Below, piece after piece: positions 20,602 through 40,378 of a stretch of DNA of 63,145 nt. This stretch comes from SAR202 cluster bacterium (GTDB lineage: Bacteria > Chloroflexota > Dehalococcoidia > Lucifugimonadales > UBA826). Where the stretch lies: NCBI GenBank assembly GCA_008373095.1, contig RQOP01000005.1, forward strand, positions 1 to 63,145. The letters run 5' to 3'. Under the pieces are notes generated by a model. That model was not told where the DNA came from. It made no database searches and saw only the letters and a list, made by a program, of their open reading frames with translations. A program made the translations under genes and the position numbers. Every line of letters begins with the position of its first letter. Position 1 is the first letter of the stretch.

Positions 20602-21237
20602 CTAACTGACAAATTCGGAAGGAGATCCATCAAAAACAACCCTACCTCCCTGAAGGGAAATAATTTTGTCCGCATAATGCAAGGCCATATCTATGTCATG
20701 GGTTACGACTAATAAAGTCCTTCCTTCCAAAGAAACTTCTTTAAGCAAACTGTAGAACTCTTCTCTTGAATTTCTATCTACCGAGGACAATGGTTCATCC
20801 ATAATGATCATGTCCTTTTCCTGAGCAATAGCGAAAGCTAACCAAACACGTTGCTTTTCTCCTGCCGAAATATCGGAAAAATTGCGTTCCAACAGGCCTT
20901 CAAGGTGAAATTGTTCCGCCAATGCGTCGAGAATTTCTTGTCGAGAATCACTACCTTTATTATTTTTCTTTATGGCTACTGATATTACTTCCCCTACTGA
21001 AAGAAATGGAGGATCAGGCAAATTTTGCGGCAAATAAGAAATGTCTTTTGGGTCAACTGTGTCAACATTCCCAGAATTAACTTGCAAAATTTTCATGATT
21101 AGCTTGAGAACTGTAGTTTTACCCGACCCGTTGGGCCCAACCAGGCAATAAAAGGAATTAGGAGATATTTCAAATGAAACACCCTGCAATATCTTCAGAT
21201 GCTCAATTTCAACGACCGCATTGGACAAGGTAATCAC
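20602..21237 (-). CDS. ABC transporter ATPase (FepC/BtuD type)
   Basis: GPNGSGKT, ISAGEKQR, IMDEP, VTHD. Confidence 0.93.
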   Translation of the reverse strand: MITLSNAVVEIEHLKILQGVSFEISPNSFYCLVGPNGSGKTTVLKLIMKILQVNSGNVDTVDPKDISYLPQNLPDPPFLSVGEVISVAIKKNNKGSDSRQEILDALAEQFHLEGLLERNFSDISAGEKQRVWLAFAIAQEKDMIIMDEPLSSVDRNSREEFYSLLKEVSLEGRTLLVVTHDIDMALHYADKIISLQGGRVVFDGSPSEFVS

Positions 21238-22187
21238 TACTTATACCTCCAGGCCAAATACATCATAAGCGGAGCTCCCAACATCGTCGTTGCGAGCCCG
21301 ACTGGCAGTTCTATAGGAGCAAACAACAACCTTGCCACCTGGTCCGATAATAAGGTGAGTAGACCTCCAGTAAAAGCGGAAATAAGTATCAATGACACTG
21401 GAGAATTTCCTACAAATCGCCTACCGATATGTGGTGATATCAAGGCAACAAATCCAATAAGACCTCCCGCATATACGGAAGAGCCGGCTAAAGCAGCGGC
21501 AATGGACATTAAATAAATCCGAGTTTTTATTGGGTTTACTCCCAGTGATTTGGCAATATCATCTCCTAAAGTTATCGGCAACAACCTTGAAGAAAAAACA
21601 AGCGAGCCAGCCAAACAAGCAAATAATGAACAGGTTAGAAAATATATTAACTGCCAAGAACTGGCAGAAAAGGAACCAGCCACCAGACCAATCACCTGAG
21701 AGGGAAAAACTCTGCCATAAGAGATGACACTAGTCCCCAAAGAAACCATAAGGGCGCCTACGGCTATCCCCATGATAGCGAATTTCACAGGTGTTAAATT
21801 TCGATTAGAACTCAGTGCAGTAAGAAATAAAGCAACAATCAACGAGCTAGCCATAGCCCCAAGAAATACGCCGTATACCGGAATTGATATCAGGCCAACA
21901 GTAACAGCGGCCATAAATATCACTGCTCCCCCACCTATTCCAAAAAGATTAGGATCTCCTATTGGGCTCCTTGTCGATAGCTGGATTAAAACTCCTGATA
22001 GACCCAAAGAAGCCCCTACTAGGACACTTAATATCACACGGGGAATCCTTATCGACCACACTACCGTCGTCATTACCCCATCATCGGACCTCATCAGCCC
22101 ATTGTAAGTATCCTGAAAACTTAGATCTGAGGGGCCTGCAAAAACCCCTACGATCGCGAAAACAAACGTGGCTGCAACTACAGCCAC
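21237..22187 (-). CDS. FecCD/BtuC-type ABC permease
   Basis: IRIPRVIL, PIGDPNLFGI, AKSLGVN, IGFVALISPH, ELPVG..GAP. Confidence 0.93.
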   Translation of the reverse strand: MAVVAATFVFAIVGVFAGPSDLSFQDTYNGLMRSDDGVMTTVVWSIRIPRVILSVLVGASLGLSGVLIQLSTRSPIGDPNLFGIGGGAVIFMAAVTVGLISIPVYGVFLGAMASSLIVALFLTALSSNRNLTPVKFAIMGIAVGALMVSLGTSVISYGRVFPSQVIGLVAGSFSASSWQLIYFLTCSLFACLAGSLVFSSRLLPITLGDDIAKSLGVNPIKTRIYLMSIAAALAGSSVYAGGLIGFVALISPHIGRRFVGNSPVSLILISAFTGGLLTLLSDQVARLLFAPIELPVGLATTMLGAPLMMYLAWRYK

Positions 22188-22215
22188 GTATGGAAAAGAT
22201 TTTCTTACTAAAAGT

Positions 22216-23313
22216 TTACTCAGCAGACACAGCGTCCTTTAGAAATTCAACAGCCTCTACAATTCTAGGTCCTGGGGACTGTAAAAATAAAGCCACATCA
22301 GCCTCCACCACATTACCTGTTCGGATGGCAGTTAAACCTGCAAAAGGAGGGATTTGCTTAATCGATTCAGACAGTCTAGGAGCCGGTGCTGGTGCCGGTG
22401 TAATTGTTACCAACACATCTGGGTTGGCCATCAAAATAGCTTCTGTGGACATCAAAGCGAAACCAGGAAATGGCCCGGAATCTGGCAATCCAGCCGCCTT
22501 GTTATCCATGCCAAGAGTGGCAGCGATCAAACCTGTATAAGACTCTGGACGGGCTGCATACAAATTCCTATCTTGATCCGATATCAATAATAGAACAGCC
22601 CTGCTGTCGTCTGCCCCTATTGAATCAAGTCTACTTTGGATATCGTCAACTGCTTTTTCAGCGACGGATTCTTTACCAATAATTTTTCCGATCATGGAAA
22701 TGTTGCCGGTAACGTCCGAAACACTTTCTGCCTTCACAGCAACAACTTTCAATCCAGATTGGGCAAATATTGCAGCAAATCTAGCTTGGGTCAAAGCTTC
22801 TATGATGACAAGGTCTGGCTGATTACCTATTATGGTTTCCATTGATGGGTCATATGCACTTCCCACATCTGGCAAACTTTGAACTTCTACAGGGAAATTA
22901 GACGCCCTATCTCTCAAAATTGCTGTCCCTCCGGCTGCATACAGCATCTCTGTAGCTGTTGGACTTATTGATGCTATTTTCTCGGGTATATTTTCGAAGG
23001 TTACTTCTTGTCCGAGAGCATCGATTACCACCACTGCCTCTGCAGCTTCAGATTCTCTAGCTGGAGGTGCAGGGTTTGATACAGGACTGGCTGACATTGC
23101 TGACACCGGTGGAGCTGTAGGCTCAGGTGCAACAGTTGCAACTGCTGGCTTTGTAGGTTCAGGGGCTGCGGCTGGTGCGGGTGCTTTTGCAGGTTCAGAT
23201 GACACCGCCGGTGCGGGTGCTTCTTCTACCTTACTATCAGATTCCGAGCATGCTACAAAAATAAATAAAGATAAAGCAATCAAAGCAAGAGAGAAACGTG
23301 TGTAATTAAGCAA
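22216..23313 (-). CDS. Helical-backbone ABC substrate-binding lipoprotein, BtuF/YvrC-like (cobalamin or Fe-chelate), with Ala/Pro-rich linker
   Basis: Lipobox FVAC; about 60-aa A/P/E linker; ASISPTATEML, LPDVG..PSMETII..QPDLV; C-terminal SPGPRIVEAVEFL typical of BtuF-like proteins. Confidence 0.85.
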   Translation of the reverse strand: MLNYTRFSLALIALSLFIFVACSESDSKVEEAPAPAVSSEPAKAPAPAAAPEPTKPAVATVAPEPTAPPVSAMSASPVSNPAPPARESEAAEAVVVIDALGQEVTFENIPEKIASISPTATEMLYAAGGTAILRDRASNFPVEVQSLPDVGSAYDPSMETIIGNQPDLVIIEALTQARFAAIFAQSGLKVVAVKAESVSDVTGNISMIGKIIGKESVAEKAVDDIQSRLDSIGADDSRAVLLLISDQDRNLYAARPESYTGLIAATLGMDNKAAGLPDSGPFPGFALMSTEAILMANPDVLVTITPAPAPAPRLSESIKQIPPFAGLTAIRTGNVVEADVALFLQSPGPRIVEAVEFLKDAVSAE

Positions 23314-23465
23314 AACGGTGATATCTCCTATTCAAATGTCAATTTCATTATAGTATTACATTTTCAAATACTATTTCTTTGATTGTGCAGTGTTTGGGCA
23401 ATCAATTTTTCAATAAACATTATTTGCCTGTTGAATAAATAGCCCCCCCCACACACACAAAAAGG

Positions 23466-23675
23466 AGTCTCCTGGCCTTAGTCCCGCCAATTACTAAGTC
23501 CTAAATGCCCTGAAGTGGGGGCCGGCTAGTCTGAGCGGAAGGAGACCAGGAGACTAAAAGCTGCCAGACTCAAGGATTTCTTGATGATTAACTAAGGTTT
23601 GGTTTCAGCCGAGGAAAAGACTGTTGAGAAGCGGTTATAAGCTCCCAGGTTCCAATTTACCCTCAGAGTCTGGCA
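23466..23675 (-). ncRNA. Candidate tandem structured RNA (two domains closed by 10-bp perfect stems); class unknown
   Basis: TGCCAGACTC 23562-23571 / GAGTCTGGCA 23666-23675 and AGTCTCCTGG 23466-23475 / CCAGGAGACT 23546-23555; internal helices pair better on the minus strand (G-U pairs); each domain is followed by a U-tract on minus. Confidence 0.45.
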
Positions 23676-23685
23676 AGTTTTTTAT

Positions 23686-24888
23686 CTAATCTAGCATTCC
23701 CAAATCCCTGAATATGACTTGGGTACCTGTCAAATCAGACAGGTCTTCCATAGATAAAGCTGGCTTATTTAGCTCTTCCAGCGCAGGTAGCAACATGTGG
23801 GTTTTTACACCGTGGTCCCCTGCCAAAACTGGGTATTCATAAATTTGGCCTGTGAAATATTGCTGCGCAACCTTCGAGGTCATAAATCTAAGGAACTTCT
23901 CAGCATTTTCACGGTTTTTACCCGTGTTAACAATTCCTGCTCCAGAGACCATCACCAAGCTGCAGGGACCACCATCACTTAGGAATAAGTTTCTTGCATT
24001 AAATGTATCACCTGACTCAGAAATAAATCTGTGCAGATAATAGTGGTTTACTAGACCAATACTGATCTCTTCAGCTGCAGCAGCAGCTACCTGAGGTGTG
24101 TTCTTTGGGTATACTCCAACTTCATTGGCCATCATGTCTGTAAGCCACTGCAAAGTTTTCTCCTCACCCCACATAGATCTCATTCCTGTAACCATTGTCT
24201 GGAACGAGCTGTTTGATGGGGCCCAACCTAGCTTTCCTTTCCATTTTGGATCGGTCAATTCTTCACATGAACTTGGCAAATCGCTCAAAGTAGCGGTATG
24301 AACCAATACTCTAGCCCTACCTGATATTCCTACCCATGTAGCATCAGAAGGCTTTGCCCAGCCAGCAACAGATTCGGTTATGTCACCAGGCAGCGTGACC
24401 AACCTGCCTTCCGCTGATAGAAACCCAAGACCCCCTGGATCTTGAGCGTAATAGATATCAGCCGGGCTGTTATCACCCTCTTCCAAAATCATGGTAGCGA
24501 TCGGAAATGTTTTACCATATTTGGCATCTACATCAATTCCGGTAAGATCTTCAAACTCTTCGATAATAGATCCTATAAGACTCTCTTTTCGTCCTGAGTA
24601 AATTACCAACTTACCAGGATCAGCTTCCCGTTCTATGACAACTTCTTCAATAATAGTCTGGCCAGGAACCTCAACAGTCTTTACGACTTCTTTCTCAACC
24701 ACGACTTCTACAGGCACCTCTTTCACCACCTCTGTAGTAATAGTCTGTCCGGGAACCTCAACAGTCTTTACGACTTCCTTCTCAACCACGACTTCTACAG
24801 GCACCTCTTTCACTACCTCTGTAGTACAAGCAGCAAAAATCCCTGCAAGAGCAAATATGGCTATTGCCATTAAAACAACTCGATTCAT
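23686..24888 (-). CDS. Fe(III) ABC substrate-binding lipoprotein (FutA/FbpA-like) with duplicated Val/Glu/Lys-rich N-terminal repeat
   Basis: Lipobox FAAC; LVIYSGR, GISGRARV, KGKLGWAP.NSSFQ, LVNHYY (Tyr-Tyr iron ligands), AEKFLRFM, EYP. Confidence 0.88.
   Translation of the reverse strand: MNRVVLMAIAIFALAGIFAACTTEVVKEVPVEVVVEKEVVKTVEVPGQTITTEVVKEVPVEVVVEKEVVKTVEVPGQTIIEEVVIEREADPGKLVIYSGRKESLIGSIIEEFEDLTGIDVDAKYGKTFPIATMILEEGDNSPADIYYAQDPGGLGFLSAEGRLVTLPGDITESVAGWAKPSDATWVGISGRARVLVHTATLSDLPSSCEELTDPKWKGKLGWAPSNSSFQTMVTGMRSMWGEEKTLQWLTDMMANEVGVYPKNTPQVAAAAAEEISIGLVNHYYLHRFISESGDTFNARNLFLSDGGPCSLVMVSGAGIVNTGKNRENAEKFLRFMTSKVAQQYFTGQIYEYPVLAGDHGVKTHMLLPALEELNKPALSMEDLSDLTGTQVIFRDLGMLD
24651..24824. 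repeat. Two tandem 87-bp (29-codon) intragenic repeats
   Basis: 24651-24737 and 24738-24824 differ at 4 positions, all synonymous; unit TTEVVKEVPVEVVVEKEVVKTVEVPGQTI. Confidence 0.95.
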
Positions 24889-25005
24889 GACCAGTTTTTA
24901 CCTACCTTATCATTTTACAAAGAGCGCTAATAAAAGTTTGTATGTGCATAATGTTTAATTTACTAAGCATACCCTTTGTTTAATTATTAGTATGCACAAG
25001 AAAAT

Positions 25006-25035
25006 ATATTAAGCACCTAGATTAGGTGGTGTCAA
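25006..25035 (-). promoter_or_regulatory. Sigma70-type promoter of the Fe-SBP gene with palindromic operator in the spacer
   Basis: TTGACA (25035-25030), 18 nt, TAATAT (25011-25006); CACCTA-GAT-TAGGTG at 25014-25028. Confidence 0.6.
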
Positions 25036-39973: not shown

Positions 39974-40378
39974 TTAGCTCAGTACGTCCTCTAAATCCCG
40001 CAACCTCAAACCTGTTGCTCGATAGAAACCTTTCTTCAAGTTTTCTCTGGCATGAGCAGAAGTGAGTGTTCTAATAGGGCCCGAAATTCTGACACAGGAT
40101 GCGTACGGTTGAACAGTCCCAGATCCTTTCTCAGGAACACTGGATAGCAGGGCCCTGTTCTTGATTCTGTACTTTACTTTAAATAGAGTCTTATCAAGGG
40201 ACCTAACCACTTCTTCCCTGTATTCTGGCCTAGGAATGGTAGCCAATGTCTTAATGGGCAAATAATGGGTCTTACCACACATTAGACATATAATTTCTTC
40301 CGAACGAGGTATCATCCGACCGCCACAATGAGCACAGTCAGCAGGATGTGAATTCGATTCAATATTTTCTTCTATCAA
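39974..40378 (-). CDS. Hypothetical protein with N-terminal zinc ribbon
   Basis: CAHCGG...CLMCG followed by a basic domain. Confidence 0.7.
   Translation of the reverse strand: MIEENIESNSHPADCAHCGGRMIPRSEEIICLMCGKTHYLPIKTLATIPRPEYREEVVRSLDKTLFKVKYRIKNRALLSSVPEKGSGTVQPYASCVRISGPIRTLTSAHARENLKKGFYRATGLRLRDLEDVLS

Follow-up and report, generated by a model that had tools for sequence, protein, structure and literature searches.

The 63,145-nucleotide (nt) stretch of a SAR202 cluster bacterium (contig RQOP01000005.1), called the window here, carries on its minus strand a two-domain structured RNA at 23676-23466, in the tail of a gene for a solute-binding protein (SBP) and 10 nt past its stop codon. 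This element is a real folded RNA whose helices have been kept by compensatory change, and it represents a new, lineage-restricted structured RNA family that is absent from Rfam. Based on its genomic setting, the element is predicted to be the 3' untranslated region (3'UTR) and terminator of the SBP transcript, rather than a leader for the operon that follows. Its most probable role is that of a small regulatory RNA (sRNA) or a stabiliser of the messenger RNA (mRNA), and not that of a metal or B12 riboswitch. We give about an even chance to a lineage-specific structured 3'UTR with a terminator that is plausibly the source of a ~225-nt, Hfq-independent sRNA acting in trans.

Results

Fold of the element and its strand

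The SBP gene (23686-24888, minus strand, as are all features of the locus below) encoded a lipoprotein-type extracellular solute-binding protein with matches to Pfam SBP_bac_6/1/11/8. Its homologues were labelled as iron(III) ATP-binding cassette (ABC) transporter SBP in the source names, with NCBIfam matches below the curated cut-offs. The stop codon UAG of the gene was located at 23688-23686 and the 10-bp stem of domain 1 started from 23675. The single-stranded A-rich linker at 23677-23685 (AUAAAAAAC; GUAGAAAAA[C/U] in relatives) was kept from the stop codon to helix P1 in all homologues.

Domain 1 was closed by UGCCAGACUC/GAGUCUGGCA, which formed 10 perfect pairs, or 11 with a terminal U-G pair (23676-23666 with 23571-23561). 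The 5' strand of this helix, P1, was UUGCCAGACUC (23666-23676) and the 3' strand was GAGUCUGGCAG (23561-23571). P1b prolonged the closing helix past a 1-nt bulge, in which GAGGGU at 23659-23664 paired with AUCCUU at 23572-23577, and the 3' strands of P1b and P1 together filled 23561-23577. P2 (23599-23655; UUGG at 23652-23655 with CCAA at 23599-23602) was specific to the homologues defined below as clade A and contained two hairpins, P3 (UGGGAGC..GCUUCUCA, 23641-23647 with 23625-23632) and P4 (AGUC-UUUUCCUC-GGCU, 23607-23622), the latter with an 8-nt C/U-rich loop at 23611-23618. A conserved and mostly unpaired stretch, AACCAAACCUUAGUUAAUCAUCAAGA, followed at 23579-23604. Domain 2 was a rod of 90 nt (23466-23555), closed by AGUCUCCUGG/CCAGGAGACU and then CCUUUUU, with a basal helix S1 (23543-23555 with 23466-23478) and an apical GCCC/GGGC stem (23519-23522 with 23507-23510). 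This stem displayed the C-rich motif CCCCACUUCA (23511-23520), the first two C of which belonged to the stem in the fold of the source genome (G000; further G numbers denote genomes and L numbers loci or contigs that were compared). A terminator-like tail, UUUUU, was found at 23459-23463, 2 nt past the domain-2 stem.

In the original prediction, made from the window sequence, a tandem structured RNA was proposed on the minus strand. Both of its domains were present in the minimum free energy structure of RNAfold (-81.5 kcal/mol, z = -3.5, equalled by 0 of 200 shuffles) and their helices were kept in homologues. All of the sub-helices that it listed were recovered, including UUGG/CCAA, UGGGAGC..GCUUCUCA, (C)AGUC..GGCU(G) and both closing stems, as were the U-tracts at the ends of the domains, with runs of 4 U after domain 1 and 5 U after domain 2. 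The plus strand of the same single sequence folded nearly as stably (z = -3.2). Because both strands of the G000 sequence folded similarly, the strand assignment rested on comparative G-U data. In the helix tables of the homologues, G-U accounted for 43 cells and A-C for 1-2 at most, and therefore the RNA was assigned to the gene strand.

Novelty and copy number

At the gathering threshold, the search of the whole window against Rfam returned only a transfer-messenger RNA (tmRNA) located elsewhere in the window. At relaxed E-values, no relevant match was obtained for the spacer between the SBP gene and the next gene, or for two sets of 16 and 7 related loci. The absence of a recognisable family of non-coding RNA, as originally stated, was in line with these searches. 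A B12-box-like 10-mer had also been pointed out in the element. No match of the cobalamin riboswitch (RF00174) was found on the spacer at E <= 10, nor on seven homologous loci at E <= 1, and the 10-mer did not hold up as a sign of cobalamin binding.

The element was present as a single copy in the G000 genome (1.95 Mb, 42% G+C) according to a genome sequence search and blastn-short. Dispersed copies, which had been named as speaking against a regulatory RNA, were thus not observed, and a dispersed repeat of the repetitive extragenic palindrome or miniature inverted-repeat transposable element type (REP/MITE) was rejected, as the model of the conserved core described below also matched once each in G000 and G006. 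The only open reading frames (ORFs) of at least 20 codons touching the element were marginal: the gene strand had one of 26 amino acids (aa), and the opposite strand one of 21 aa. The homologues differed by 1-2-nt insertions and deletions that were out of frame. A coding sequence was rejected because of these marginal ORFs and out-of-frame changes.

Homologues and distribution

In BLAST searches of 60 relatives and 29 genomes of the family, the sole homologue was found in G006, a species of the same genus, with 78% identity. An exact scan of metagenome contigs with a 21-nt conserved word added L031, L032 and L033, and the contigs encoding close SBP homologues added L034, L037, L042, L044-L047 and the partial L043, together with L036. 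The last was excluded as a probable chimeric contig. At L036 1601-1810, the 5' half of a clade B domain 1 was joined to the 3' half of a clade A (G006-type) domain, and P1 was unpaired; it is most likely a metagenome chimera joined across the conserved core, and possibly a natural recombinant.

The homologues fell into two clades. Clade A (G000, L031, L042, G006, L045-47, L032 and L033) had the same architecture as the window. Clade B (L034, L037 and L044) was without P2 and P3 and had wholly different closing helices, with the core retained. In a further group, clade C, where the SBP was 77-79% identical, two long rods were likewise located past the stop codon, which were unalignable and gave no match to the core model. 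This 52-nt core covariance model (R1) matched G000 and G006 only, namely 2 of the 401 genomes of the order, and had no significant match in clade C spacers or in those of other genera. The word YCUCAAY was recurrent in the spacers of other genera and was judged not significant.

Compensatory changes in the helices

MAFFT lost the structural register between clades, and the cross-clade comparison therefore used manually aligned helices, with the tests run in Python. In P1, 96% of the cells were paired compared with 73% in shuffles (reached by 0 of 2000), and both sides were changed in 8 of 11 pairs between clades A and B. The P1 5' strand in clade B was ACCCGGAUUCC, ACUCGGAUCUC or ACUCGGAC, and in every case the 3' strand matched it. 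The basal helix S1 of domain 2 was 100% paired compared with 77% in shuffles, with both sides changed in 9 of 11 pairs, and again none of the 2000 shuffles reached it. P1b was paired in 40 of 40 cells in 8 sequences, which was not significant alone (reached by 89 of 2000 shuffles); G-C, G-U and A-U all occurred at one of its positions (L032, L045). The changes in P3 and P4 were only from G-U to G-C or A-U, with just one U-G to C-G in the P4 stem. In L032, the CCAA partner of P2 was located 3 nt farther upstream and was still paired. The homologues and covariation that had been suggested as a check of the prediction were therefore found, in G006 and about ten metagenome contigs, with the pairing of P1 and S1 kept.

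The comparison also sorted out two alternative pairings in the original prediction. The GAGGGU segment had been given two exclusive partners, and both could pair in G000. The compensatory change in L032 (GAGAGU/ACUCUU) supported the 3'-proximal pairing GAGGGU:AUCCUU and weakened the rival with ACCUU, which was left unsupported. Pairing of the 3' end of domain 2 with domain 1 (GAGUCUGG/CCAGGAGACUC) occurred in G000-type sequences only; the domain-2 stems differed in G006, L032, L033 and clade B, and this contact was not sustained.

These data bear on the explanation that the element acts at the DNA level, as a repeat, recombination site or palindrome, or is a chance fold. The stems of G000 are indeed perfect 10-bp inverted repeats and the plus strand of G000 folds almost equally. 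Against this stand the single copy in the genome, the 43 G-U pairs, which at the DNA level or on the opposite strand would read as mismatched A-C, and the survival of pairing through compensatory change. We consider such a DNA element or chance fold extremely improbable.

Nearly invariant segments predicted to be single-stranded

Three C/U-rich segments were nearly invariant and predicted to be unpaired, including the P4 loop UUUCCUC, ACCUUAGUUAAUCA and the domain-2 apical loop CCCCACUUCA, the last present in 9 of 9 aligned domain-2 sequences. Common to clades A and B were the P4 hairpin AGYC-WUUUCCUC-GGCU (alignment A9), the core (A)CCU(U)AGUUAAUCA of the stretch at 23579-23604, and the apical loop in the form CCCCACUU(C/U)A. 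Between G000 and G006, AACCAAACCUUAGUUAAUCAUCAAGA was identical at 26 of 26 positions and GAGUCUGGCAGCUUUUAGUC at 20 of 20, compared with 67.5% identity at the fourfold synonymous sites of the SBP gene. The probability of being unpaired in six homologues was 0.81-1.00 for the P4 loop, 0.67-0.79 for the 23579-23604 stretch and 0.79-1.00 for the apical motif; the whole-RNA mean was 0.36-0.44, compared with 0.67-1.0 in the conserved blocks. The pattern was thus one of variable, covarying helices presenting invariant C/U-rich single strands, and a predicted single-stranded seed was conserved above the neutral rate, as in an sRNA.

Conserved motifs in single-stranded and loop contexts on variable helices would also suit a regulatory 3'UTR whose loops bind an RNA-binding protein, such as an iron-responsive moonlighting enzyme or a dedicated regulator, tuning the stability or translation of the SBP mRNA. 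A CUUAGU(A/U)AAU-like word was present in the 5'UTR, domain 1 and domain 2 of G000, yet it was not conserved in G006 and L045. An iron-responsive element (IRE)-like CAGUG loop was absent, and no candidate protein was linked to the locus. A protein-binding 3'UTR of this kind is regarded as improbable.

Linkage to the SBP gene and not to the next operon

The downstream operon (20602-23313) encoded a Peripla_BP_2 binding protein (22216-23313), a FecCD permease (21237-22187) and an ABC ATPase (20602-21237), all identified by Pfam and NCBIfam. The order from SBP to Peripla_BP_2 was kept in nine of the family genomes examined, from six genera. The spacers in these nine were unrelated in sequence and had lengths of 237-792 nt in eight and of 36 nt in G017. 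Among the loci with the element, the junction between the SBP stop and the RNA was the same throughout, GAUUA[A/G]-[A/G]UA(G)AAAAA-P1. In L034 and L044, an ORF of 137-147 aa resembling a zinc ribbon and without a Pfam match followed the RNA instead of the Peripla_BP_2 gene, and a 99%-identical copy of this ORF was located upstream of the SBP gene in L045. The RNA always followed the SBP gene, and the next gene downstream varied between strains. One and the same SBP protein (P0121) was followed by an RNA of clade B type in L044 and of clade A type in L045-47, and the SBP gene was present as one copy each in G000 and G006. The varying place of the zinc-ribbon-like ORF around the unit points to a module of SBP and RNA that was rearranged or tandemly duplicated among strains.

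The remainder of the spacer (23314-23458), which was outside the RNA, contained a (GU)4G8 tract, an AT-rich region, a palindrome, a TATAAT box and a Shine-Dalgarno (SD) sequence. The palindrome TAGTATT-N9-AATACTA (23351-23373) overlapped the TATAAT at 23347-23352 and was located ~35-60 nt upstream of the Peripla_BP_2 start, and the SD sequence AGGAGA (23324-23329) stood ahead of the same gene. Palindrome and SD were conserved in clade A loci; the palindrome was kept in G006, L033 and L046, and L032 had AATATTG-N7-CAATGTT. The TATAAT at 23347-23352 was not called by a simple promoter scan. The palindrome and TATAAT are likely the operator and -10 box of a separately regulated promoter, and this promoter may be metal-responsive. 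The downstream Peripla_BP_2/FecCD/ATPase operon is, judging from gene order, a neighbour of the RNA and not its partner. With the fixed SBP junction, the variable downstream gene, the terminator and the separate palindrome and -10 box, the element was therefore read as a 3'UTR element and not as a leader.

The proposal of a cis-regulatory switch for a metal or cobalamin has to be weighed against this linkage. In such a riboswitch or attenuator, domain 1 would be the aptamer for a metal, cobalamin or another ligand and domain 2 the terminator platform controlling the downstream transporter. An aptamer-like junction closed by the covarying P1, conserved unpaired nucleotides and a following terminator fit this scheme, and the adjoining genes encode transporter components. 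A riboswitch is a 5' leader conserved with the gene that it regulates, whereas this element was in all cases attached to the SBP gene, at its 3' end. The upstream gene was conserved and the downstream gene was not, with another gene downstream in L034 and L044. About 145-150 nt with their own palindrome and -10 box lie before the next gene. No conserved mutually exclusive pairing between domains 1 and 2 was found, P2 and P3 were dispensable since clade B lacks them, no tertiary contact or pseudoknot was supported, and the apical loop of the supposed platform was conserved, which would be unusual for an expression platform. No Rfam riboswitch matched at E <= 10. Cobalamin (RF00174) and metal (NiCo, Mn) riboswitches resemble the element in context only, namely metal or cofactor transporter genes and a multi-helix domain with a terminator; they differ in that no covariance model matched at this threshold and the relatives have a different sequence for the helix strand that holds the B12-box-like 10-mer. 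A riboswitch is thus quite improbable, and of the originally suggested choice between a new cis-regulatory switch and a small RNA, the switch is unsupported and the small RNA is still live.

Domain 2 as a probable terminator and the structured 3' end

A run of 4-5 U (UUUAU in L037) was found 1-3 nt from the domain-2 stem in 9 of 9 homologues reaching there. Domain 2 had a stable, G+C-rich 13-bp basal helix followed by a U-tract at the 3' end of a gene, as in a Rho-independent terminator, and it was missed by a simple terminator scanner because of the loop limit of 3-8 nt. Based on these features, domain 2 looks like an intrinsic terminator. Intrinsic terminators and 3' stabiliser hairpins likewise have a G+C-rich stem and a U-run right at the gene end. 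By comparison, a branched rod of 90 nt with a conserved apical loop, preceded by a conserved multi-helix domain of 116 nt, exceeds the needs of termination.

The location directly past the stop codon and the terminator-like domain 2 would suit a purely cis 3' end, in which domain 2 terminates transcription, domains 1 and 2 block 3'-5' exonucleases and give the abundant SBP mRNA a long lifetime, and no trans role exists. The conserved loops would then be sites for decay or stability factors or be kept for folding. SBP orthologues in most other family genera that keep the gene order, and in clade C, also precede long spacers, of 237-792 nt except for one of 36 nt in G017. The spacers that were folded or read closely hold unrelated strong helices before the next gene, and a structured 3' end thus seems to be common to this gene in general. 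Barrier hairpins need no set sequence, yet the three single-stranded segments are near-invariant while the helices turn over. We regard a purely cis 3' end as possible, if unlikely.

Among the orthologous SBP spacers, those of L018/L019 (G028/G027), L013/L016 (G015/G022) and L014/L015 (G014/G021) were unrelated and strongly structured. A 24-bp perfect stem enclosed ~100 nt in the G028 spacer, classical terminators were seen in G015, G022 and G013, and the spacers of G014 and G021 contained a small zinc-ribbon ORF (MTAYCLKCKSK…).

RNA decay toolkit

Neither Hfq (PF17209) nor RNase E/G (PF10150) was found in the 94%-complete G000 genome. RNase Y and RNase J were encoded in G000 above the curated cut-offs (C79:1388-2890; C36:12388-13680). 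By its predicted gene content, the SAR202 lineage has a Firmicute-like RNA decay toolkit. The dependence on Hfq and RNase E that characterises sRNAs of the SroC/OppZ type was thus not seen here. With no Hfq or RNase E but with RNase Y and RNase J, any sRNA in this organism would therefore take a Firmicute-like route. On the gene strand, the stretch 22900-24100 contained no promoter-like site. The element lies in a 3'UTR and shares the predicted terminator of its parent mRNA, as 3'UTR-derived sRNAs do.

Other features of the locus

A sigma-70-like promoter of the SBP gene (TTGACA-18-TAATAT) was located at 25035-25006 on the minus strand, followed by a 5'UTR of ~110 nt. Repeated GTGCATAC and GTATGC(AC) boxes were observed in this 5'UTR (window 24940-25035 region) and also in L045 and L034; they are a candidate operator or structured leader of the SBP gene. 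On the minus strand at 23443-23458, the (GU)4 G8 tract followed the U-run, with G8 in G000, GGGGGGTGGG in L031 and G7 in L042; this tract may be a hotspot of slippage or of assembly error.

The zinc-ribbon-like protein (137-152 aa, CxxC…CxxC) was encoded at L044 1585-1998, L045 183-641, and L034 120-563 and 2287-2370, so that it flanked the SBP-RNA unit on both sides in L034. Its G000 homologue, 60% identical, was located at 39980-40351 of the window, 16 kb away. The Peripla_BP_2 orthologues of L011 (G006) and L015 (G021) had lipoprotein linkers with long repeats rich in His/Asp/Glu (HDEHEKHDEHEK…), which is suggestive of metal binding, and the orthologue of G000 had a Pro/Ala-rich linker instead. 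In the clade C contigs L038, L039 and L041, a ferrochelatase gene was located directly upstream of the SBP gene, where AhpC/TSA stands in G000. The ferrochelatase neighbour fits an iron or haem theme of the locus.

Discussion

A structured 3'UTR that plausibly yields a trans-acting sRNA would operate as follows. Transcription of the SBP gene would end at domain 2, and domains 1 and 2 would shield the 3' end from exonucleases. A cut by RNase Y in the A-rich linker (23677-23685) would free a ~225-nt RNA, whose 5' end would be guarded from RNase J by P1 and whose 3' end would be guarded by the terminator. Any expression of the SBP gene would lead to accumulation of this RNA, in proportion to the level of expression. 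The RNA would act in trans without Hfq, its C/U-rich, anti-Shine-Dalgarno-like loops pairing with the G-rich ribosome-binding regions of other mRNAs, in the manner of 3'UTR-derived sRNAs and of the C-rich sRNAs of Firmicutes. In organisms with this set of RNases, endonucleolytic cleavage of an A/U-rich single strand immediately ahead of a strong helix yields a fragment guarded on both sides, by the helix against RNase J and by a terminator at the 3' end. A stable RNA of ~225 nt is plausible because the linker, P1 and domain 2 match this layout.

Several points weigh against this favoured explanation. The element has a very restricted distribution, with 2 carriers among 401 genomes of the order. 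Genome-wide complementarity scans for targets gave only chance-level matches, and comparison of the three loops with the start regions of genes gave only noise. Clade A alone was 98.7% paired with no double-sided change, and most of the compensatory evidence was due to a single deep split, between clades A and B, and to manually aligned helices. Moreover, a purely cis role in termination and stabilisation would account for the helices, though not for the invariant loops. The N-terminal linker of the SBP is an 87-nt (29-aa) tandem repeat (…EVVKEVPVEVVVEKEVVKTVEVPGQTI…), each copy of which has 13 nt perfectly complementary to CUCAACAGUCUUU of domain 1; this match of domain 1 to the SBP repeats (24670-24682 and 24757-24769) was not conserved in L045 and L034 and is probably due to chance.

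There are precedents for sRNAs derived from 3'UTRs (PMC9438474, PMC7821165). SroC is cut out of the gltIJKL mRNA, from its gltI (SBP) portion, and its 3' end is at the terminator in the gltI-gltJ spacer (PMC4474525). The element shares with SroC of Salmonella and E. coli its place at the tail of an SBP gene heading transporter genes, the Rho-independent type of terminator in the spacer and, as predicted, its origin as an mRNA by-product. SroC is shorter and starts within the coding sequence; it depends on RNase E and Hfq and acts as a sponge of GcvB. The RNA of the element would be ~225 nt long, with two large domains, and has no sequence similarity to SroC. OppZ originates from the opp ABC-transporter operon, and OppZ and CarZ are 3'UTR-derived autoregulatory sRNAs of Vibrio cholerae (PMC7398697). 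As predicted for the element, they are RNAs from the 3'UTR of a transporter operon that share the mRNA terminator and whose output scales with the parent gene. Unlike the element, OppZ follows the last gene of its operon and pairs with oppB of its own mRNA, while no conserved complementarity to its own mRNA was seen for the element. An icaR-like interaction, in which the 3'UTR would pair with the 5'UTR or SD of its own mRNA, was considered and rejected: AUGAU/AAGGU was present in G000 and absent from L045 and L034.

The C-rich sRNAs of Firmicutes, RoxS/RsaE and FsrA, are Hfq-independent and present conserved C-rich motifs, in hairpin loops or single-stranded regions, that could pair with G-rich SD regions. 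The element resembles them in its conserved C-rich loop and single-strand motifs and in a host with RNase Y and RNase J and not RNase E. They differ from it in being independent genes with their own regulated promoters, and no sequence or Rfam similarity to the element exists. A bolder version is that the element is a RyhB/FsrA-like, Hfq-independent riboregulator cut from the tail of an iron-uptake mRNA, co-induced with the SBP in iron scarcity, with loops silencing the mRNAs of iron-rich proteins. We hold this version to be doubtful. A new ligand- or protein-responsive sensor in domain 1 is less likely than this RyhB/FsrA-like role.

SAR202 Chloroflexota are abundant in the dark ocean, where they are among the most abundant lineages of the deep ocean, and are uncultured. 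No regulatory RNA described in them turned up in a full-text literature search that combined "SAR202" and "small RNA". The element is a candidate supported by comparative genomics: its helices covary, its exposed loops are invariant and it is always attached to the SBP gene of a transporter. If it is only a stabiliser and terminator, it would be an ordinary though elaborate mRNA 3' end, and the riboswitch interpretation would be corrected nonetheless. If it is truly trans-acting, riboregulation by 3'UTR-derived RNAs would reach a new phylum and be linked there to the uptake of a nutrient, probably iron.

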